Assembly: GCA_035250975.1 (NCBI GenBank) | Contig: DATFEP010000047.1 | Coordinates: 18,963 to 82,962, forward strand | DNA from: Nitrososphaeraceae archaeon | GTDB lineage: Archaea > Thermoproteota > Nitrososphaeria > Nitrososphaerales > Nitrososphaeraceae | Length of the DNA: 64,000 nucleotides | Reading direction: 5' to 3' | Part shown: one piece after another, positions 2,466 to 14,232 of the stretch | How the letters are laid out: every line of letters starts with the position of its first letter | Numbering within the stretch: position 1 is the stretch's first letter | Program-made: the position numbers and the translations under genes | Notes under the pieces: model-generated | What the model was told of the DNA's origin: nothing | Database searches by the model: none | What the model saw: the letters and a program-made list of their open reading frames with translations, nothing else

Positions 2466-2666
2466 TACGCCATTTTTTATTAATTAATAATACATAAGAT
2501 TAGCGTAATTATCTTCTAAAAAATATAATACTATTGATCATTGTTCTTATCGCAATGGATGAGATTATTTTTGTTTTATACAGAAACAATATAGAGAAAA
2601 GATTAAAATAGTTTTTAAAAAAAATATGATCAAATTCAGATGTAATTTAATAAAGTAATTTTTCCA

Positions 2667-2690
2667 AAATTTTTTGGCGGCGAAAAATTT
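2667..2690. repeat. Degenerate copy of dispersed palindrome AAATTTTTCGGCGCCGAAAAATTT
   Basis: aaattttttggcggcgaaaaattt, 22/24 match to the copy at 42475-42498. Confidence 0.7.
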
Positions 2691-3067
2691 AATATAGTTA
2701 ATTTTGGCATTAAATCGAGTTTAACAACAATAAAAATTATATAACATCTTTTCAAAAATAAACGAAACAAAATTACATTAGTGTAAAGAAAAATACGAAA
2801 AAAAAGTAAAATCATATTTAGTCGTTAATTCCGTGATTATATATCTATGATGATATATGTGCCTTAATATAGTAGACAATTCATTTAAAACATCTTTTTT
2901 TTATAAACATAATTTAAAAATTTCTAATCAATAGACATATTAAGTCTGATACTATCCAGTGATTATAATTATATTTTTAATTTGAGAAATCTTAATTTCT
3001 TACAAACAATAATTAATTATAAGATAATAACAAGAAAGTATATTAACTAATAGCTACAATTGATCCC

Positions 3068-4177
3068 ATGACGTTAACTAAAAGATTAAGAAAGAATATT
3101 TCAAAGATTTCGTCTGATGAGCTAAAAGATTTCATAAATGCTATTATTTCTTTAAATATTAATCCATCTTTTCGTTATCCTGGAAATAGGGATGATAAAC
3201 CATTTGTGGGTGGAGTTAGTTTTTGGTTTAAACAAGATGAAATTCATCAAGCTACACATGTTCATGGTGGTCCAGCCTTCCTTACTTGGCACAGAGAGTT
3301 ATGTAATAGATTTGAACGACTCTTAAGATTGCATAACGAAAATATTTCTTTACATTATTGGGATTGGAATGAGGATCTTGAAGAAACAATTAATTCTGAA
3401 TCTAAAGTAATTAATCTTTTTACAGGTCAACTTTTAGGTAATTCAAAAGGCGAAGTTGGAGATCCTTGGCGTAGTAACAACTTCTATAATCCATATCCTA
3501 TAAACGATAACTATCGTGGAATTGAATCCTTTGATATTGAACATAGCAATCCAGCAGATCCCCCGTTAATAATAACTAGAGATAAACAAGATGGAACATT
3601 GCACGAATTTATGAAAAGAAATAATATTCGAATCTTTACCGACGAGGAGATCATTACATCACAGACTTATAGGGAAATGAGATTTAAATTAGAACATATA
3701 CATAATTGGGCTCATAATTATATTGGTGGTACAATAGGAGATCCTCATACTTCATTTTGTGATCCATTTGTGTTTCTTATTCATTCAAACGTAGATAGAC
3801 TTTTTGCTGCCTGGCAATCATGTAAAAATTCTGAATGGAGACTGGACCCAGAGAAAGTGTATGGTGAAGATATAGAGAGTGTTGCCTTAGGTTCTACTTC
3901 CCCACGTGTAGTTGTAGGCATACAAACTTTGCTATCGCCCTGGTGCGGGATAGGGTATCCCTTTGAATATATTAATGATAAAACAAAGTTGAAAGAAGAA
4001 CCAGGTGTTAAAGACGTAAGACCTTGGTCATATCCTGAAAATTCACATAGGGATCCTGAAATTCCTCATTATGAAAAACCAAAGAATTCATTAGATCGAT
4101 CAATAATTAGACCAACATTGTATGATAAATACCCTGCAATTGAGAATTTAGAATATAATACTTTTTTGGAGATATAA
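3068..4177 (+). CDS. Tyrosinase (type-3 copper) family protein
   Basis: CuA HQATHVHGGPAFLTWHRE, YWDW, CuB HNWAHNYIGG...DPFVFLIHSNVDRLFAAWQ. Confidence 0.92.
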   Translation: MTLTKRLRKNISKISSDELKDFINAIISLNINPSFRYPGNRDDKPFVGGVSFWFKQDEIHQATHVHGGPAFLTWHRELCNRFERLLRLHNENISLHYWDWNEDLEETINSESKVINLFTGQLLGNSKGEVGDPWRSNNFYNPYPINDNYRGIESFDIEHSNPADPPLIITRDKQDGTLHEFMKRNNIRIFTDEEIITSQTYREMRFKLEHIHNWAHNYIGGTIGDPHTSFCDPFVFLIHSNVDRLFAAWQSCKNSEWRLDPEKVYGEDIESVALGSTSPRVVVGIQTLLSPWCGIGYPFEYINDKTKLKEEPGVKDVRPWSYPENSHRDPEIPHYEKPKNSLDRSIIRPTLYDKYPAIENLEYNTFLEI

Positions 4178-4178
4178 A

Positions 4179-6293
4179 TTGTCTATTCTACATTTTTCTG
4201 GAAAATTTAAATTCTATCCTCCTATCTATAATAACGAACCAAGAAATCCTGAAAGATATTTTAATCCCACACTTGAGCCTGAAACTGTACTTACCAAAAT
4301 AACTGATGGAGTAGACCCATTAAAATATTTTGAATTTGAATTTTTAAATGTTTATGTAACAAAGGTAACTTATGATGATGGTTCTTTTTCATTAAAAAAG
4401 GAGAAAGATCCTATTATTGGAAAAAAAGTCATTTTGAAAGGGCTTTTAGTAGATGTTTCTCCTCATTTAGAGAGAGGTAGATTGTTTGCTGGAGAAATTA
4501 GGATAATTGACTTTATAATGGGAAAATTAGAATTAGCTGTTCAATCAGATTTATTTAAAACTATTCGTAATGATACTGATAAAGGTGTTAAAATTCTCTC
4601 TGCAGATTTCGATTCCAAAATTTATAACCATAATTACTTGGAAAATACATTTCTTACAACTTCTAATTCCCGTTATTTACGCGAATTACAAATCAATTAT
4701 TTTGGGATATATTTTAATGTAAGAAAATTTAGTTTTGAGTCACTTGAAGGAGAAATTAATGGTTACTTTGGACCTTATATACCAAAAGAAAATAGTGAAA
4801 GAATTAGACTTAGTGGAAGAAGGTTATTATTTAATCCAGAAATTGAATCTCAGTTAATCAAAGATTTTCATTTAAAGGATCCCGATAATATGTCTTCAGA
4901 TATATTTCAGTATGATTCTGAAGATGTATTTAGGTATGATTTAGAACTTGTTTATGACATAATAGAGGAAAAAAGAATGATAGTACTAAAGTATCTACAT
5001 GCTATCCCATTTATTGATCAGAATGATAAAATTCCTACAGATTACCGTTTTTTTATTGTTCTCTTATACAAAGGAAAAAGGATAAAAAATCATCACGAAT
5101 CAGAGTTAGAATTAAAGCTTAAACCAAAAGATATTTTTGTATCAGGAGGAATACATACTGTGAAAATTCCTTTAAATATACAAGAATTTGATAAATTAAA
5201 AATCGAAATTGTGGTTACAAAAGATAATAATAATAATTTCTTTACCTATCTTAAAGAACCGCAATACGATTTATCATTAATCAACTATGAAAAGTTCTTG
5301 ATATTCAAATCTAATGAGAAAAGAGAAATTAAGATCAAAATCTTTGAGGAAAATCGAAATTCCAACAAGGAAATTAATTTAGAAGTAGGCCAATATGATA
5401 ATGATCGTTCTCCTACTGTTGCCCATTGGACCGATAAAATAAATACAAAAAATGGAATAGCTACAGGTTATATCCAAGCACGAAATTTAGAGAATTCTGA
5501 AGAAATAGAAGATCCTACTCCAGGAATTGATCCAGATACAAATAATATAAGAGTAAAATTAAATGGAGATCTTCCGTGGGATCGATATTATGGAAACTAT
5601 GTTTATATAAGAATAAACAACCAAAAGGATAAAAAGCCATTAATAAAATACAATATTCCGGTTCGTGTACTTCATGGTATTAACTTAGAAGAGGCACAAA
5701 GGGAAATAGACAGTTTAAACAAAGAAAGAATACAAGAAGTTGTTACAAAGATGCTTAGATATTATACTAGATATTATCCATGGCTTCACGTTGAATATAG
5801 GTATAGACCAACAAGTTCTAATATTCCTAAATTGGTCTACAACCAATTTTTAAAAGTTACAGAATATTTGAATTTTATCGAAGAAGAAGATATAAGTCAT
5901 TGGCATATTATTGAAAACACTATAACAAAAATTAATCATTTTCTGGACAGATTGGAAAAGGATGATCATGACTGGAGTAAAATGCCGCGTTCTAGAGATT
6001 TTCCATTTAATGGAGTAGAATATTTGAAAATGTGGAAGACAAGTATTATCGATAAAATGATAAAAGAAATTGAAGAACAAAGAAATAACATGAAGGATGA
6101 AAATTTAGATAAGATTAATTTTGGCAATTGGGAAGGTATACAAGAACTTATTAATAAAATTGACAATCTAAATATGCGTATATCTGAACAAGATAAAAAA
6201 TTAATTCTTACATGGAAAGTACAACTTTTAGAAGAAATGGTAAAAATACTCACATATGCAAAAACTTCTACAAGGCATTTTCATTCTCATTAA
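4179..6293 (+). CDS. Hypothetical protein, probable VioB/RebD/StaD-like core without the ferritin-like C-terminal domain
   Basis: MSILHFSG start, VDVSP...LFAGEIRI, YYTRYYPWL and MPRSRDFP resemble remembered VioB motifs. TTG start 1 nt after the tyrosinase stop. Confidence 0.6.
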   Translation: MSILHFSGKFKFYPPIYNNEPRNPERYFNPTLEPETVLTKITDGVDPLKYFEFEFLNVYVTKVTYDDGSFSLKKEKDPIIGKKVILKGLLVDVSPHLERGRLFAGEIRIIDFIMGKLELAVQSDLFKTIRNDTDKGVKILSADFDSKIYNHNYLENTFLTTSNSRYLRELQINYFGIYFNVRKFSFESLEGEINGYFGPYIPKENSERIRLSGRRLLFNPEIESQLIKDFHLKDPDNMSSDIFQYDSEDVFRYDLELVYDIIEEKRMIVLKYLHAIPFIDQNDKIPTDYRFFIVLLYKGKRIKNHHESELELKLKPKDIFVSGGIHTVKIPLNIQEFDKLKIEIVVTKDNNNNFFTYLKEPQYDLSLINYEKFLIFKSNEKREIKIKIFEENRNSNKEINLEVGQYDNDRSPTVAHWTDKINTKNGIATGYIQARNLENSEEIEDPTPGIDPDTNNIRVKLNGDLPWDRYYGNYVYIRINNQKDKKPLIKYNIPVRVLHGINLEEAQREIDSLNKERIQEVVTKMLRYYTRYYPWLHVEYRYRPTSSNIPKLVYNQFLKVTEYLNFIEEEDISHWHIIENTITKINHFLDRLEKDDHDWSKMPRSRDFPFNGVEYLKMWKTSIIDKMIKEIEEQRNNMKDENLDKINFGNWEGIQELINKIDNLNMRISEQDKKLILTWKVQLLEEMVKILTYAKTSTRHFHSH

Positions 6294-6806
6294 TCATAAT
6301 TGCAAAAATTTTTTGTATATATTCATCATAAGATATAATAAGCGAAATTTCAATTTCTGACCATGTAGTAGGTATCAAATTCATAGAATTTATAATCTGA
6401 TATTGATTATTTAAGAATATTTATCAAATAATTAAAAACCTTTTCGATGGTTCAAAATTTTACCAATATATTTATCTATGAAGACAAATTATATAAAATT
6501 ACAATATAGAATAAGATTGATGCGTACACCTATAACTCAAGCAGGGTATGTGGACGTTATGGAGGTATTCCACCTTTTATTCGATTTCTATTAAAAAATA
6601 GTAGTATTCAATCTAATATATTAAGATTTTTGCTATTTATTGACCAAAAAATCTAATCTGCTTAATTTGAACAAGATTCAACATCTTAACTTTTGAAAAT
6701 TTATTAATAATCTACATAATTATTATCACATATAAATGAAATCTTCCTATAACTTGTTGATTAAAAAAAATTTGGAATTTTATATGTATTTTGATTGTAC
6801 TAACAT

Positions 6807-7043
6807 TTAGAATGTTAATTTATTGATCTCCTTGTCTCCACCATGTTCTATAGTTACATTAATACCTACTACTACTCTTGCAAGAGCCAAAATAGAGACC
6901 ATCGCTTCATATGAACTATCGTCGTCATTTGCAACTTTGAACGTATCGGGAAGTGTGACCGAAGGAGTATCAATTTCCACACGTGCAGTTTTAGAAGTAT
7001 CTAGTACTTCTATCTTTCTAACTTGACCTGTAAATGTTGTCAT
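6807..7043 (-). CDS. Small hypothetical protein, possible OB-fold
   Basis: 78-aa ATG ORF preceded by AAAAGG; strand-strand-helix-strand pattern. Confidence 0.6.
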   Translation of the reverse strand: MTTFTGQVRKIEVLDTSKTARVEIDTPSVTLPDTFKVANDDDSSYEAMVSILALARVVVGINVTIEHGGDKEINKLTF

Positions 7044-7253
7044 CCTTTTGTTCGGAGGATTTTAATCTCAGTTATAACATGGTTACCATAAAAGAATATA
7101 GTTGATCGTTCAAAACGTTTTGTTGACATCCCGTTGATTTGAAACTCCTTTTAATACATTACAAATGGCTGTGTCATAAGAAAAATTAAAAATATAGTAT
7201 CAAAGTTTGATTAGAAAGTAATATTAATACTAAAAAAGTCTCTTTTACTTTAA

Positions 7254-8931
7254 ATGGAAAAATGAAATTAATATACCTTCTAGACAAAGGGCTTTAGTAT
7301 TTCAAGGTGGAGGCTCTCTAGGAGCTTATGAAGCTGGTGTTTTTCACGTTTTATGTCATTGGATTAAAAAAGATTTATCGGACAATGAAAATGTTTTTGA
7401 TATAATTGCTGGGACTTCAATAGGAGCGGTTAATGCTTCCATAATTATTAACGATATTTTAGAAAAGAAGAACCAAGAAAAGTCATCAACAGAAGAAGCA
7501 GAAAAATATAAGAAAACTTTAAAATATTGGGAGGGCACACCTGAAAAGCTTATCCAATTTTGGAAGAATGTATCATCTAATACAAATACTCCCTGGGATC
7601 CTTGGAATCTGTATGATTTTTATACATCATTCATAGAAAGTTATGTGAAATTCAATTATCAAAATTATCTAAATTTATTTCCTTATTTACGAGAATTGTT
7701 ACCATCATCAGAATCTTTTCGAAGATACTATCATACACAAATGTCCTTAGTACGAGGAGAGTCACATATATTTAGTCCCTTATTTATCTATCCTTTTGCA
7801 ACTCCAGTCCCAAACAAATTTTTTGATTATTTTTCACCGACCGCAAAATGGTATCAATACAGTAATCTTCCACTTAGACAGAGTATAGCAGGCTCAGCAA
7901 GTATGTTGAGAGATAACAACACAAAGAGAAGCGGAATAAGAACAGTTTACGACGAAAAAGAACCAAGACTTCTTCTTGTTGCTGTGGATATAAGTGAGGC
8001 AAAGAGTACCACATTTGACAGCTATAAAGAAGATATTACAATAAATCATGTATTGGCTAGTGCAGCAGTACCAAAAAATTATCCATATGTAGATATAAAT
8101 GGAAACAAATACTGGGATGGTGGAATTTTAAGCAATACACCAATAAGAGAGGTTTTAAGTGAGCATAGTAAATTGTGGGTAAAGAGATTGGGAATAGATG
8201 ATTATGATTCGAGTTCACATTCGAAAAAGGATTTAAGCTATGAAAAGGAAAAAGAATGGTTTAAAGAGGAAGATGAACAAGATAAACGTAAAAATAAAGA
8301 TAAAAATGAAAAAAGAATTCCTAACCTGGACTTGTGTATAGTAAATCTATATCCATCAAAAGAAAAAGGGGAACAAATTCCGTCCCTATACGATTATGAC
8401 TTTACAAAAGATAGAGAAAATGATATTAGATTTCATGATAAGACAGAATATGATGTAAAACTGGCTAATGTAGTAACTGATTATAAAGATTTTGTAGAAC
8501 GTATGGCAAAATTAGCAATTAAATCAATAGAAGAAATTAAAGATAAAGTTAAACTTGTTGCCGAACTAAAGGAAGAATTCATAGGTATCTTGGGTAAAAA
8601 CCAAACAACACTTACTAGGGATGAAAAACCTAGGTATTATTATGATCTTTTGCAAAAGAGGTTTGAGATTAAAAAAACAATTGAAATACAAAGAGAGGAC
8701 GACATACATACAATTGCAAGCAAAGCCTTAGATTTCTCTTCAGCAACTATAAACCATTTAATTAAACAGGGAATTACCGATACACTTGATAAAATTTACC
8801 AAGACCAAAAAGAAAACGATAAAGAATCATTCAAACGATGGCTATCTGGTTATATAAAAGATATAGAGAACCAAAGTACAAAAGATCTTTTAAATCCAGT
8901 TTTGGAATTTAAAGATAAAGAGAGGTTATAA
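7254..8931 (+). CDS. Patatin-like phospholipase; start frameshifted or non-canonical
   Basis: The frame of ORF 7645..8931 is open back to 7234 and contains QGGGSLGAYEAG and GTSIG; WDGG lies downstream. ATG at 7254 is out of frame by one A (ATGGAAAAATGA). Confidence 0.85.
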
Positions 8932-9700: not shown

Positions 9701-10165
9701 CTGAAACTACAAAAGATAAATCTTGATACGAACGTTTTTTTAAAATTGTTTTTAGATGAAAGCAAAAGTGATATTGCCCAAAAATTAGAGGACCTTGCTA
9801 ATAACGATAAAGTACTTTTGGTAATATCAGATTGGCTAATAAATGAATGTATGGCAGTTATTGAAAGAAAAATTATTGAAAAAAGAATGACGAACAATGA
9901 GGCATTTCATATTTTAAATGCGATTACAAATTTGCAGGAAGAAAAACTGAAACAAGATCAAATGGAATTATATTCTATTGAAGGTAAACATATTATCGCC
10001 TCTCGAGTTATCATCCAAGATATAAATTTGATAAATGCATCTGATGCTCTGCACATATTTATAGCACTTCTTTCAGAGTGTAATGCTATTCTTTCAGCAG
10101 ATGTTTTTCTGACAAATGCATTAAAGAAAAAAATAAAGGTTTTGCATTTTACACCTATAATATAA
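9701..10165 (+). CDS. PIN-domain (VapC-like) protein
   Basis: In-frame extension from CTG at 9701 gives KINLDTNVF (first PIN motif); later SDALHI and ILSAD motifs. Confidence 0.8.
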   Translation: MKLQKINLDTNVFLKLFLDESKSDIAQKLEDLANNDKVLLVISDWLINECMAVIERKIIEKRMTNNEAFHILNAITNLQEEKLKQDQMELYSIEGKHIIASRVIIQDINLINASDALHIFIALLSECNAILSADVFLTNALKKKIKVLHFTPII

Positions 10166-10252
10166 ATTTCAATAATGAAAGAGAAGTGAAAAAATTATTC
10201 AAACTGTTAGAGAAGAATTAATTTATAGACTTATTCATGAGTGCTGAAAAGA

Positions 10253-10300
10253 AGGGCTTCGAATTTACATTATGACAAGATTTGGTGACATAAGATATTA
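10253..10300 (+). repeat. Hairpin-type repeat, copy 2 (right of PIN gene)
   Basis: Direct repeat of 9295-9342. Confidence 0.75.
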
Positions 10301-10405
10301 GATTTTTTATTGAAATACACGAAAGTTCAAATTCCACACTTTTAGCTAAAAGCTATACAGAATCCGCTGCTTTTTAATAATAGCCTAAATTCAAAAAACT
10401 TATCT

Positions 10406-11062
10406 ATGTTGTTGGTACTAATTTATCAAATGTCCGATCTTGAAAATGAAATTGAAAATGAAATTGAAAATGAAATGCAGAAATATGTTGAAGATTATAA
10501 TCGAACTGGTAAAATATTATATTCTCAAGCTCGATTTGCTGAACAAATATATAAATTATCTCAAGACAATTTTAAATCATCTAATGAACTTAATTTTAGA
10601 ATGTATCAAATAATGAACGAGATAGAGAGACAATACTTTTTTGGAAAACTTATTAAAAAGTTCAAAAAGACGGCTTTAAAAAAATTAATTAAATTAAGTA
10701 AAAAATTTATTAGAGGGTTGCCAGTCTATCGAGGAATAGATACCATTACACAACTTTCACGGGGAAACCTAAAAGGAGCATTAACTTCCGTAGTCAGGGC
10801 AAGATTATCTAGTCTAGTACCTGGAGGACCTGTTAGTATTCCAGTATTGAATGGTCTTAATACTAACTCTGAATTACCTAATAGTGTGCAAAATAATCTA
10901 AAGGTATGGAAGAATTTTGTGAATATGTCAGAATATGCATACGAAAATCTAATCGATAATTTTAAAGATAACGCTATTATAGACCCAATTTCTTCATACA
11001 AAATAGCTAACAAATCATTTCAAAATAGTATTATGCGAACAAAATATTACTTTTTACCATGA
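10406..11062 (+). CDS. Hypothetical protein (true start may be ATG 10430)
   Basis: 218-aa ORF with an N-terminal 12-bp tandem repeat encoding ENEI/ENEM x3. Confidence 0.65.
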   Translation: MLLVLIYQMSDLENEIENEIENEMQKYVEDYNRTGKILYSQARFAEQIYKLSQDNFKSSNELNFRMYQIMNEIERQYFFGKLIKKFKKTALKKLIKLSKKFIRGLPVYRGIDTITQLSRGNLKGALTSVVRARLSSLVPGGPVSIPVLNGLNTNSELPNSVQNNLKVWKNFVNMSEYAYENLIDNFKDNAIIDPISSYKIANKSFQNSIMRTKYYFLP

Positions 11063-11439: not shown

Positions 11440-14232
11440 TTACAGGAAACGTCCGTATACACCTCTGCCCATGGTACTTGCAACTAAGATATTACTATTT
11501 CTCATAAGACCCAAACCTGTGACTATAATACGAGGCATTCCATCTTCAAATGGTTCCCATGAATCACCACCATCACGTGTTCTAAAGACTCCGATACTTG
11601 TTGACGCGTACAAAATTTCTGGATTATATTGGTCAAATACGATTGAGGTAACTGGTACATCTGGAAGTGCATCAGTAGGTAATATTCCACTTGCATTTGT
11701 CCAATGTATTCCACCATCCACCGAACGGAAAATATGTGGCCTACCATACCCACCATAAGAAATGTATAAAAGACTCATAGTATACCACCATGGAGCAATA
11801 CATGTGATATATCCAGAAGGGGGTTTATCATTGAGAGTATAAGGTTCAGTCCAGCTTCCAGGATCTCCATTGGTTATACTTCGATAAATTCTACCTTGAT
11901 CTGTTGCCACAAAGCACACTGACTTATGAGATGGATGGAAAACAACATATTTAGCATCACCAATTGTGGTTAGAACTGATGTCCAGTCGTTTCCTTGATT
12001 AGTACTACGAAATACTTGATTTGCTTGTGTACATAAAAGGAGATTAGAATCACCATGTTTGACAGCGAGATGAGATACATCTATTTTAGGATCTTTTATA
12101 CCATTGAGAATAGTTGTCCAAGTTATTCCTGTATCAGTGCTTCTACGCAAATTATGAGACCAAGGTGTTACGTAAATATTAGAGTTAGTATTAGGATCTA
12201 TGACGAAGATACCTCCTTCATTGCCTGCATTCGTATCCACCCATGTTTGAAATGTTGTGGGCTTTTTCATTAGAATTCCTTCATCTTGAGTACTTCCTCC
12301 AAAAAAAATAGGATAGCTCTGTCCTACTCCAATGGTATAAAATTGTGTAGCTACTAAATTATCGCTTTGAAGTGTCCAACTCGATCCATTATTCCCAGAT
12401 TTATAAACCCCTCCATCCGTAGCAAGATAACAAATATTTGAGTCAGCTGGGTCAAATACGATTATATGCTTATCTGCATGAGTTCCTCCTCCAGCATTAG
12501 AAAATGAATTACCGCCATCGTTACTGCGCTCGAGACCAATGCCACCTGCAAAAATTATATCCTCGTTATTTGGATCAACAGCAACCATATTAGTCCATTC
12601 ATTATAGGTGGCCTTCTGATGTTCTCCTGGAATTCGTATCCAAGTTAAACCAGCGTCTGACGATTTATATAGCTCTCCCGAATCTAAACCCATTTTACTT
12701 ACTACGAAAGAAGTTCCATGTTTACCGTTTAATCCCATAGCTAGCTTTATCCATTCAGCTGAGTATCCAGTAGGAATTCCATTGGTCAGTAAACTCCATG
12801 TACTTCCACCGTCTAAACTTTTAAAGATGCCAGTATTCCAGACGCCAACATATAATATGTTTGGAGATAATGGATCCATAAGTGCATCAGAAATGTGGTC
12901 TGTTCTGACATTGATCCATGTTGATCCTCCATCTATAGATTTATGTAATCCACGGTTTCCAGCAACATATACAATGTTTCTGTCATTGGGATGCACTAGA
13001 ACTTTTGTACATCTGTCACTATTAATCGGTGATAAAAGATCCCAGTCTACGCCGCCATCTACTGTTTTGTAAACCCCTACCCCAGGATATGAAGGCGCCC
13101 AACCAGGAGTATCTTCTCCAGTAGCTGCATAAACCGTCCGAGGAGAACTTTTGGCTATTCCGATCGCACCAATGGCCATTGAGAGTTCCAAATGCATTGT
13201 ACTATACCAACTCAAACCACCGTTATCCGTTTTCCAAACTCCACCATCAGCCGCTCCAGCGTACAAAGTACTTCCGTGAATCGGATGAGGATGAATGGCA
13301 AGGGATTTTATTCTTCCACTAAATCCCTTTTTTGGCCCAGCTAACCTCCATTGTTGACAAGAAGAGCTTTTATCAAAAAGAAGTTCTAGGGGAATGTTAC
13401 TTAATATATCAGAATCAAAAAGCTGTGTCTCTGGTAATCCACCATCTGCTAAGTCAAGTCTCTGACATCTTTCGCACATGTATTTCAATTTTGACTCTTC
13501 GACTGGCGGTAATCCATATTTTGCTGCCAATTGAGGATCCCTGCCAATACTTTCAAATGTATCATTACAAAGAATTAATCTACAAATTTGGTTAATCAAT
13601 TTATCTAGAGATTGTGACTGACGCGCAGCTCTTAGCCATGGCATCGAGCTATTAATTATCATTATTGTTTGCAATAACCAAGGATCTGATGGTAAACCAA
13701 TAGACACATATTTACCAGGTTCTTTGATTATAGCCCATGCATATTCACCATTTAAGGATAATGAGGATCTATTAACTAAAACCCACTCTTTAGTAGATTC
13801 TTCAAATCTAAATATGCGTATGGTGGATGGCTCTATATTAGTAAGTTTATCCTTATCTAAGATAATTTTAAGCATGAATTCTTTAGATGATTGCGATTCG
13901 ATTTTTGCTTCCATTGTTTCAGAAACAAATCCAAAACTAGAATTTGCACGCGGATTATCAACTTTATATATTTCTGGTTTATATCCTTCTTCTTTACCAA
14001 CTATAGTAATATCGAACCCTTTGAGTGGACTTTCTCCAGTATCTAAATCTCTAAATCGGATTTTAGAAAGATTTTTAACATTTTCTATAGCATGTAAACG
14101 ATCTTTATGGGAAATAAATCCATCTTGATCGCTAAAAAGATCCTTAAACCATTGAGCACGTCTTTTGAACACATCCTCTTCATTTTCTATTTCTTCTTCT
14201 TTTTCATTTTTTTCATCGTTAGTAGCACTCAA
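11440..14232 (-). CDS. BNR/Asp-box double beta-propeller protein (VPS10/GH74-like)
   Basis: Many SxDGGxTW Asp-boxes, SGRIKSLAIHP, C-terminal STMGRGVY. Confidence 0.9.
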   Translation of the reverse strand: MSATNDEKNEKEEEIENEEDVFKRRAQWFKDLFSDQDGFISHKDRLHAIENVKNLSKIRFRDLDTGESPLKGFDITIVGKEEGYKPEIYKVDNPRANSSFGFVSETMEAKIESQSSKEFMLKIILDKDKLTNIEPSTIRIFRFEESTKEWVLVNRSSLSLNGEYAWAIIKEPGKYVSIGLPSDPWLLQTIMIINSSMPWLRAARQSQSLDKLINQICRLILCNDTFESIGRDPQLAAKYGLPPVEESKLKYMCERCQRLDLADGGLPETQLFDSDILSNIPLELLFDKSSSCQQWRLAGPKKGFSGRIKSLAIHPHPIHGSTLYAGAADGGVWKTDNGGLSWYSTMHLELSMAIGAIGIAKSSPRTVYAATGEDTPGWAPSYPGVGVYKTVDGGVDWDLLSPINSDRCTKVLVHPNDRNIVYVAGNRGLHKSIDGGSTWINVRTDHISDALMDPLSPNILYVGVWNTGIFKSLDGGSTWSLLTNGIPTGYSAEWIKLAMGLNGKHGTSFVVSKMGLDSGELYKSSDAGLTWIRIPGEHQKATYNEWTNMVAVDPNNEDIIFAGGIGLERSNDGGNSFSNAGGGTHADKHIIVFDPADSNICYLATDGGVYKSGNNGSSWTLQSDNLVATQFYTIGVGQSYPIFFGGSTQDEGILMKKPTTFQTWVDTNAGNEGGIFVIDPNTNSNIYVTPWSHNLRRSTDTGITWTTILNGIKDPKIDVSHLAVKHGDSNLLLCTQANQVFRSTNQGNDWTSVLTTIGDAKYVVFHPSHKSVCFVATDQGRIYRSITNGDPGSWTEPYTLNDKPPSGYITCIAPWWYTMSLLYISYGGYGRPHIFRSVDGGIHWTNASGILPTDALPDVPVTSIVFDQYNPEILYASTSIGVFRTRDGGDSWEPFEDGMPRIIVTGLGLMRNSNILVASTMGRGVYGRFL

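Follow-up and report, generated by a model that had tools for sequence, protein, structure and literature searches.

A tyrosinase gene linked to a probable remote homologue of the N-terminal module of VioB, RebD and StaD in Nitrososphaeraceae

Introduction

VioB, RebD and StaD are key bisindole-forming enzymes, in which an N-terminal module of some 600 residues precedes a ferritin-like half (Pfam PF12902). VioB-type enzymes, or chromopyrrolic acid (CPA) synthases, join two imines at C-beta (PMC10851217), and VioB is reported to contain heme b and to have catalase activity (PMC9705886); the latter paper also states that no VioB structure is available, that the heme site is therefore unlocated and that the N-terminal 600 residues have no assigned role. 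Here we describe a two-gene cassette at positions 3068 to 6293 of a 64-kb window (the whole stretch of DNA that was analysed, from contig DATFEP010000047.1 of a soil ammonia-oxidising archaeon of the Nitrososphaeraceae), in which a tyrosinase gene is followed directly by the gene of a 704-residue protein, hereafter protein X, that very probably shares a distant common origin with the first ~600 residues of VioB, RebD and StaD. Such a free-standing module would split these enzymes into two experimentally separable parts.

Tightly coupled gene pairs of a tyrosinase and its partner have a precedent in MelC1/MelC2 of Streptomyces. MelC1 is a protein of ~130 amino acids (aa) that is encoded upstream and carries an export signal, whereas X has 704 aa, is encoded downstream, shows no sequence relationship to it (X matches no Pfam family) and lacks any visible signal peptide. 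The dirigent proteins of plants, non-redox beta-barrels that capture reactive phenol species made by laccases or peroxidases and dictate the coupling outcome, resemble the arrangement proposed below in logic only, namely that an oxidase makes the reactive species and a beta-rich protein directs its coupling. An archaeal tyrosinase as such is known, since mTyr-CNK from the ammonia-oxidising archaeon Candidatus Nitrosopumilus koreensis is active (PMC5722948); the accessible portion of that paper mentions no partner like X. Campillo-Brocal et al. described lodA operons with tyrosinases and, in fungi, with PF12902 neighbours (PMC4417212). Within our literature coverage, which left out most subscription journals, these lodA–tyrosinase and lodA–PF12902 neighbourhoods were the only ones in print, and neither the bacterial clusters of X with PF12902 reported below, nor a free-standing VioB N-module, nor its pairing with a ferritin-like protein or a tyrosinase, was described.

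Organisation of the tyrosinase–X cassette

The window (~29% G+C) belongs to a 2.49-Mb genome of 94.6% completeness. The cassette is preceded by an AT-rich stretch of 602 nt (2466..3067) which holds no open reading frame (ORF) of at least 80 aa, judging from the ORF list and the sequence, and which is presumed to be the promoter region. The first gene (3068..4177, plus strand, ATG start) encodes a type-3 copper protein of 369 aa that matches the Pfam tyrosinase family PF00264 (E 1.4e-26; 94.6 bits against a gathering cut-off of 22.6), with the tyrosinase domain at residues 55–251 and a conserved C-terminal extension of ~115 aa thereafter. The original prediction had described its CuA and CuB histidines as intact, and all six copper ligands (H60, H66, H75, H212, H216 and H239) are indeed present and invariant in 23 of 23 aligned relatives. 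The closest solved single-domain relatives are of the Bacillus megaterium type (3nm8, E 2.1e-17), with mollusc hemocyanin units also among them, and inspection by eye reveals no hydrophobic signal at the N-terminus. Some of the tyrosinases that accompany X elsewhere carry His-rich C-terminal tails (e.g. L046 and L061).

The gene of protein X (4179..6293, plus strand, TTG start) begins one nucleotide after the tyrosinase stop codon. The junction (4168..4181, plus strand), read from the sequence, consists of GGAG at 4168–4171, the stop codon TAA at 4175–4177, a single A at 4178 and the TTG at 4179–4181, so that GGAG lies 7 nt 5' of the X start; this arrangement suggests translational coupling of the two genes. 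The TTG start is supported by homologues that begin with MSILHFSG or MPILHFSG at the same position. Comparably tight junctions occur elsewhere, for example at L016, L019 and L015, the last with a tyrosinase ORF ending at 5000 and X starting at 5001. Both the spacing of the two ORFs and the His-rich end of X (...TSTRHFHSH) were thus found as the original prediction had given them. Soil metatranscriptome contigs from four libraries of two studies (95–100% identity) match the tyrosinase gene at 3094–3237, 3339–3644 and 3916–4145 and the 5' part of X at 4206–4356 and 4373–4640; no contig in these libraries bridges the junction and DNA carry-over is possible, so the matches are not evidence of expression or co-transcription.

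Conserved linkage across archaeal loci

Ten loci from species genomes and 71 from metagenomes, 82 in total with the window's own locus, were scored by tblastn. Low G+C content (<46%) characterises 73 of them, 43 of which retain the X N-terminus, the other 30 being cut by a contig end and dropped. A tyrosinase gene adjoins X in 40 of the 43 loci, directly upstream on the same strand in 35 and upstream on the opposite strand in five (L049, L056, L057, L060 and L007, where the match is in pieces and looks broken), while three loci have none within the upstream sequence available (2,046 nt in L069, 637 nt in L070 and 82 nt in L072). The tyrosinase-adjacent loci span X identities of 29–67%, and clustering of the ORFs of the 73 low-G+C loci returned no other conserved neighbour. 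Owing to near-duplicates (L026/L027; L013/L014/L017), the 43 loci do not count as independent events. The identities of tyrosinase and X to the window pair correlate across 33 loci (Spearman 0.88), which are likewise kin and not independent.

The same association was recovered at the level of genomes. Of 201 sampled family genomes, the tyrosinase profile matched 56, many of them through weak paralogues. The six top matches (581–636 bits) come from the six genomes in which X is full-length, and from no others, and each of them adjoins X. The conserved linkage anticipated by the original prediction is therefore borne out both by loci (40/43) and by genomes (6/6), and X and the tyrosinase almost certainly share an obligate functional link. 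The two genes thus form an accessory unit, which is acquired, retained or lost in one piece. The partner of VioB is a flavin-dependent tryptophan oxidase and that of X a dicopper tyrosinase; no flavin L-Trp oxidase of the VioA/RebO/StaO type adjoins X at the window locus, the whole genome not having been searched for one, and the tyrosinase is the sole conserved neighbour across the 73 archaeal loci.

In one genome (G185, C53:16196-19259) both genes of the cassette have decayed: the tyrosinase match, which lies on the opposite strand, contains seven stops, and part of X contains 15. Many genomes of the family also contain one to several weaker tyrosinase-like paralogues (open frames of ~230–350 aa) away from X, so type-3 copper proteins appear to have diversified in Nitrososphaeraceae.

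Protein X family and predicted structure

Neither Pfam (E≤0.1) nor NCBIfam (E≤1) contains a family that matches X, and searches of the Protein Data Bank (PDB) sequences with the single sequence or with a profile of the archaeal-only X alignment (A1) gave nothing usable. A word-indexed search retrieved 95 homologues, and an exhaustive phmmer search of 1.84 billion cluster representatives retrieved 122 (89 at E≤1e-10 and 34 at E≤1e-30), the only name given to any of them by any source being 'hypothetical protein'. The family falls into two length classes of ~700 and ~590 aa, the shorter of which is without the helical tail, and its invariant motifs in the alignment include LPWDRYYGN, VRVLH, YYxRYYPWLH and KMPRSRDFP.

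An AlphaFold2 model of X, built from 37 sequences, is confident (mean predicted local distance difference test (pLDDT) 83.3; predicted template modelling score (pTM) 0.83) and begins with a beta-rich domain, which is followed by additional beta-sandwiches, a helical region and an ill-defined tail. The N-terminal domain (residues 1–205; 4179..4793, plus strand) is the most widely shared part, with weak beta-barrel-like structural matches, and recurs in the proteins P0228, P0210 and X_G582 introduced below as well as in a Symploca and a Branchiostoma protein. An immunoglobulin (Ig)-like beta-sandwich (residues 361–501; 5259..5681, plus strand) ends in LPWDRYYGN and VRVLH. It is followed by a conserved helical region (residues 503–640; 5685..6098, plus strand), delimited from the model and the invariant columns, with YYxRYYPWLH at residues 528–537 and KMPRSRDFP at 601–609, the latter aligning with YMPPTRDLS of the VioB family. 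The low-confidence helical tail (residues 641–704; 6099..6290, plus strand; pLDDT 31–79) with RHFHSH at 6273–6290 is confined to the ~700-aa archaeal subfamily, in which the terminal HxHxH is conserved. No signal peptide was visible by eye.

A Foldseek search of the PDB with the X model returned only multi-Ig-domain proteins at template modelling (TM) scores of 0.07–0.16, and a search of the ESM Atlas, whose own model of X is poor (pTM 0.30), gave no usable match. Prediction of a complex between the tyrosinase (alignment A4) and X residues 1–625 (A1) gave no answer (score 0.00) and is silent on binding. Among distant homologues of the N-terminal domain, none of 12 proteins contains a fused tyrosinase domain according to Pfam. 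Two further relatives of this domain are P0196 and P0212. The Symploca cyanobacterial one is partial, with 422 aa; the other (453 aa), whose record assigns it to the lancelet Branchiostoma lanceolatum, matches X residues 4–169 with E 9.2e-8 and may reflect either transfer or contamination.

Kinship of protein X with VioB, RebD and StaD

The VioB family was reached through the longer relatives (64 matches) of a ferritin-like protein encoded beside X at a bacterial locus (L005), which led to P0276 (Lentzea, 1037 aa) and P0277. Both served as positive controls on the curated VioB model TIGR04492 (726 and 667 bits), and the sources name the relatives of P0276 chromopyrrolic acid synthase, RebD-like, StaD-like or VioB. 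An alignment of 38 VioB/RebD/StaD-type sequences (A2) was assembled from P0277 and from 37 sequences found among the 120 listed of 463 P0276 matches; it is of actinomycete type only, and TIGR04492 alone represents VioB proper in the comparisons. These sequences were compared with A1 and with a wider X-family alignment (A3) that includes P0210.

Profile–profile comparison of A3 with A2 by hhalign gave a probability of 88% (E 3.2e-6) over 542 colinear columns, placing X residues 1–587 on VioB-type residues 4–658. The probability was 92.5% (E 4.8e-7) when X_G582 replaced P0210 in A3, and 94.8% (E 4.9e-8) when both bridging proteins were included. In the hhalign alignment, 18 identical residues coincide whose conservation is 90% or higher in A1 as well as in A2; shifted and permuted controls averaged 1.4 such coincidences and reached at most 5–6, with none of 2000 permutations reaching 18. 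The shared positions (X=VioB-type) include D92=D137, P95=P140, G195=G255, R214=R272, E360=E373 and R496=R507, together with Y529=Y534, M602=M576, P603=P577, R606=R580 and D607=D581, and MPxxRD, DVxP, GRLL and VRVL are motifs common to both families. The real alignments extend over 481–537 colinear columns with 15–18 doubly conserved identities, compared with scores of 12–24, 4–38 aligned columns and 0–4 doubly conserved positions for null VioB profiles (one reversed, 11 column-shuffled).

Three bridging proteins connect the families. P0210 links them in profile comparison. P0228 (Planctomycetaceae, 1244 aa) has a PF12902 domain with an X-like module behind it; TIGR04492 matches it with E 1.8e-36 (residues 709–1049 on model positions 256–581), and a hidden Markov model (HMM) of the VioB N-module matches residues 550–593, 645–867 and 953–1049 (E 2.3e-28). 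X_G582 (645 aa), found independently in an Actinomycetota genome, is matched at 9–228 by the archaeal-only HMM (P 7.7e-10), while the HMM of the VioB N-module matches it at 51–420 and 528–591 (P 4.9e-12). The original prediction had singled out four ordered segments of X as reminiscent of VioB motifs. All four are present in the order given (MSILHFSG 1–8; VDVSP..LFAGEIRI 91–109; YYTRYYPWL 528–536; MPRSRDFP..YLKMW 602–619), and profile–profile alignment places them on LPRLHFxG, FDVDP..MVGQFxFG, FAxYExLYSFM and YMPPTRDLS of the VioB-type sequences in A2, which do not include Chromobacterium VioB itself.

Several results weigh against this kinship. The TIGR04492 model finds no match in X at a threshold of E≤1 and matches only one of 37 X-family members (E 0.019). 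Without the bridging proteins the profile statistics are poor: A1 against A2 gave a probability of 0.9% (P 0.06), even if the alignment was already colinear over 484 columns, and A3 without P0210 gave 5.4% (P 0.007), while the addition of X_G582 to A1 raised the value to 33% (E 4.6e-4). P0228 could be a domain mosaic rather than a true intermediate. The proposed kinship draws on sequence profiles, and identity of fold between the predicted models is not established. Iterated HMMER from A1 ended after one round and did not reach VioB-type proteins, and all matches of a structure search with a VioB-type model lay on the ferritin-like half, none being informative on the N-module. The remaining doubt about homology comes from statistics that lean on bridging sequences; given the colinearity and the coincident residues, we nevertheless consider homology very probable. 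In sum, the VioB/RebD resemblance originally proposed for X holds for the N-module when the bridges are included (88–95%, with 18 shared residues), not when they are left out (0.9–5.4%), and it does not extend to a TIGR04492 match or to a ferritin-like half.

Absence of the ferritin-like half

X ends where the ferritin-like half of VioB starts. Pfam detects no PF12902 domain in X, nor any match in the source genome (94.6% complete), for which a Caulobacter control genome did give a match; the statement in the original prediction that no ferritin-like domain is evident was therefore correct for the protein and extends to the genome. As X lacks this half and the genome supplies none, X is, on sequence grounds, not a VioB-type enzyme and rather corresponds to the non-ferritin module. 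In the model of a VioB-type enzyme the ferritin-like half resembles ferritin, bacterioferritin and Mn catalase, and the heme and catalase activity of VioB are better explained by that half. Compared with VioB/RebD/StaD (TIGR04492), X shares the colinear N-terminal ~600 residues and their near-invariant positions, as well as, in common with VioB, a neighbouring gene for an oxidase that produces a reactive electrophile, but it differs in having an additional helical tail with HxHxH and an archaeal host.

Bacterial relatives paired with a ferritin-like protein

Nine of the X loci have high G+C content, and PF12902 is encoded directly upstream on the same strand in all six of those with an X N-terminus (about three distinct sequences). 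At L005 (Rubrobacteraceae) X directly follows the PF12902 gene (E 2e-33), and further genes of the locus encode a quinoprotein oxidase (LodA-like), a flavoprotein (LodB-like) and a propeller of the pyrroloquinoline quinone (PQQ) type. On one strand of L054 (3-7266) there are genes for a LodA-like protein, for a protein of 181 aa and for a tyrosinase of 506 aa (PF00264, E 3.5e-30), all divergent from PF12902 and X; the LodA-like gene lies beyond the tyrosinase, and a CsoR-type metal-sensing repressor is encoded just downstream, beside X. In the Actinomycetota genome G582, five genes on one strand (L089:1631-8955) encode X (645 aa), PF12902 (363 aa, E 1.6e-69), a major facilitator superfamily (MFS) transporter, LodA and a LodB-like protein, in that order. 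To judge from its gene content, this operon resembles a VioB divided between two genes that keep the order of its domains, with a quinoprotein oxidase in place of the flavin amino-acid oxidase and with an added exporter, and it is a candidate for an undescribed natural-product cluster. X is rare in this phylum (2 of 401 sampled genomes).

These cases show that the bacterial X module is always paired with PF12902, which is fused after it in the VioB family, fused before it in P0228, or encoded by an adjacent gene in the L005 group and G582, often with LodA/LodB quinoprotein amino-acid oxidases nearby. The proteins belong to the same family as archaeal X (29–32% identity for the L005 group; the HMM match given above for G582), and both groups have a gene for a redox partner right beside X. 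The bacterial partner, however, is ferritin-like rather than a tyrosinase (L054 has both), LodA/LodB and, in G582, the MFS transporter accompany it, and the bacterial proteins lack the C-terminal tail of the ~700-aa archaeal X.

Among the longer relatives of the L005 ferritin-like protein (P0214–P0275), PF12902 is fused to LodA, to glucose/sorbosone dehydrogenase propellers or propellers resembling BNR/photosystem II stability factors, to flavin adenine dinucleotide (FAD)/Rieske oxidoreductases, or to a globin and CDGSH. Since such fusions occur in many bacteria, the combination of a ferritin-like domain with an oxidase is seemingly a broad theme.

Proposed function and alternative explanations

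In Nitrososphaeraceae a dedicated tyrosinase clade, which has diverged in step with X, occupies the slot directly upstream of X where the bacterial ferritin-like partner sits. We propose that the tyrosinase and X act as one functional unit, in which the dicopper enzyme would take over the O2-using role of the ferritin-like redox module. The tyrosinase would oxidise a phenol (tyrosine or another) with O2 to an o-quinone, and X would hold the reactive product and direct a defined coupling, much as VioB-type enzymes join two indolepyruvate imines, so that a discrete aromatic dimer or a controlled pigment would be formed instead of random melanin. The chemistry would be cytoplasmic, as neither protein has a signal peptide by eye. 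This coupling or dirigent-like mechanism, which is argued by analogy, has in our estimation slightly less than an even chance of being correct. The wider idea that the VioB N-module is a portable, non-redox director of coupling for interchangeable binuclear-metal oxidases (a ferritin-like module with iron or heme in the bacterial case, a dicopper tyrosinase in the archaeal one), from which soil Nitrososphaeraceae would obtain a defined coupled aromatic product, is rather doubtful. What speaks against a dedicated coupling function is that known tyrosinases catalyse without such a partner, and that binding, cofactor, substrate and product are postulated by analogy. Occurrence is also patchy: X was found in 14 of 201 family genomes and in none of the 24 further genomes from the genus to which the window belongs, and outside the six genomes with a full-length X the matches are fragments, several with internal stops, which indicates that the function of the cassette is dispensable.

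The main alternative is an accessory role, in which X, as a caddie- or lid-like partner, loads copper into, stabilises or shields the tyrosinase and HxHxH serves as a copper handle. Tight pairing with one tyrosinase clade, with which X co-diverges, would be expected of such a partner, as would the terminal HxHxH conserved in the ~700-aa subfamily, the His-rich tails of the L046 and L061 tyrosinases and the CsoR-type repressor beside X in L054. X moreover consists mostly of beta-sandwich domains. In hemocyanins and in latent tyrosinases, the active site is covered by domains of this kind. A copper handle is difficult to reconcile, however, with the ~590-aa subfamily, which has no tail and is still tyrosinase-linked (L006, L039, L041 and L044), or with a bacterial partner that is an iron-type ferritin-like protein and not a copper enzyme; X is also about five times the size of MelC1 and matches no Pfam family, MelC1 included, and the residues common to X and VioB (D92, R214, E360, R496 and MPxxRD) look like a shared functional site. 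An accessory role is on balance somewhat unlikely; were it correct, the kinship with VioB would mean that its N-module in general escorts binuclear-metal oxidases. It is much less likely still that X is itself a heme-dependent, VioB/RebD-like coupling enzyme acting on the tyrosinase product. Homology to the VioB N-module over ~590 residues would allow this, as would a VioB heme site that is not located for want of a structure (PMC9705886), but the entire ferritin-like half is missing from X, the genome gave no PF12902 match, TIGR04492 does not match, and no conserved His or Cys of X is among the 18 positions shared with the VioB family.

A quite improbable explanation has the tyrosinase acting on X itself and converting the conserved Tyr clusters of this protein (DRYYGNY and YYxRYYPW) to 3,4-dihydroxyphenylalanine (DOPA) or quinone, with cross-linking into a protective matrix or adhesive. 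The Tyr-rich motifs are invariant across the family and the pairing is one-to-one, as this would require; yet conservation of the Y529 motif extends to VioB-type enzymes, and these are not partnered by a tyrosinase; the motifs fall within regularly folded regions that are modelled with confidence (pLDDT 75–91), and the bacterial relatives pair with a ferritin-like protein. That the two genes are neighbours of unrelated function, and the likeness to VioB a chance profile match between beta-rich proteins, is the least credible explanation. Without bridges the scores do come near the null (A1 scores 26.3, while shuffled profiles reach 23.7), but chance would account neither for adjacency in 40 of 43 loci over X identities of 29–67% and co-occurrence in 6 of 6 genomes, nor for 481–537 colinear columns (4–38 in the nulls) with 15–18 doubly conserved identities, nor for three independent bridging proteins each flanked by or fused to PF12902.

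Were the wider idea of a portable coupling director correct, it would provide the first functional assignment for the N-terminal 600 residues of VioB/RebD/StaD and would represent an archaeal natural-product or pigment route without a described counterpart. For archaea, the cassette would be one of few candidates for secondary chemistry devoted to aromatic compounds, found here among ammonia oxidisers, in which copper enzymes are already central, and a tyrosinase whose quinones are steered by a partner would be of biocatalytic interest.

Genomic surroundings of the cassette

Within the window, the neighbours of the cassette are genes for an endonuclease/phosphatase-family protein and a patatin-like protein, and no tRNA was found in positions 1–30000. 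Downstream of X lies an AT-rich spacer of 1.35 kb (6294–7644) with no ORF of at least 80 aa, the longest being a 78-aa ORF on the minus strand (6807–7043). It is followed on the plus strand by a 428-aa ORF (7645–8931) with a partial match to patatin-like phospholipase PF01734 (E 3.1e-9, residues 120–170), and then by two small ORFs (9746–11062, plus strand) with sub-threshold similarity to PIN (E 0.017) and ORC/CDC6-like (E 0.019) proteins. Together with the patchy occurrence of the cassette, these sub-threshold matches raise the possibility that the region may be variable or island-like. Further downstream, a 930-aa ORF on the minus strand (11440–14232) contains Sortilin-Vps10/BNR-type repeats (PF15902, E 4.3e-24), and this stretch has a G+C content of 38%, above that of the cassette region.

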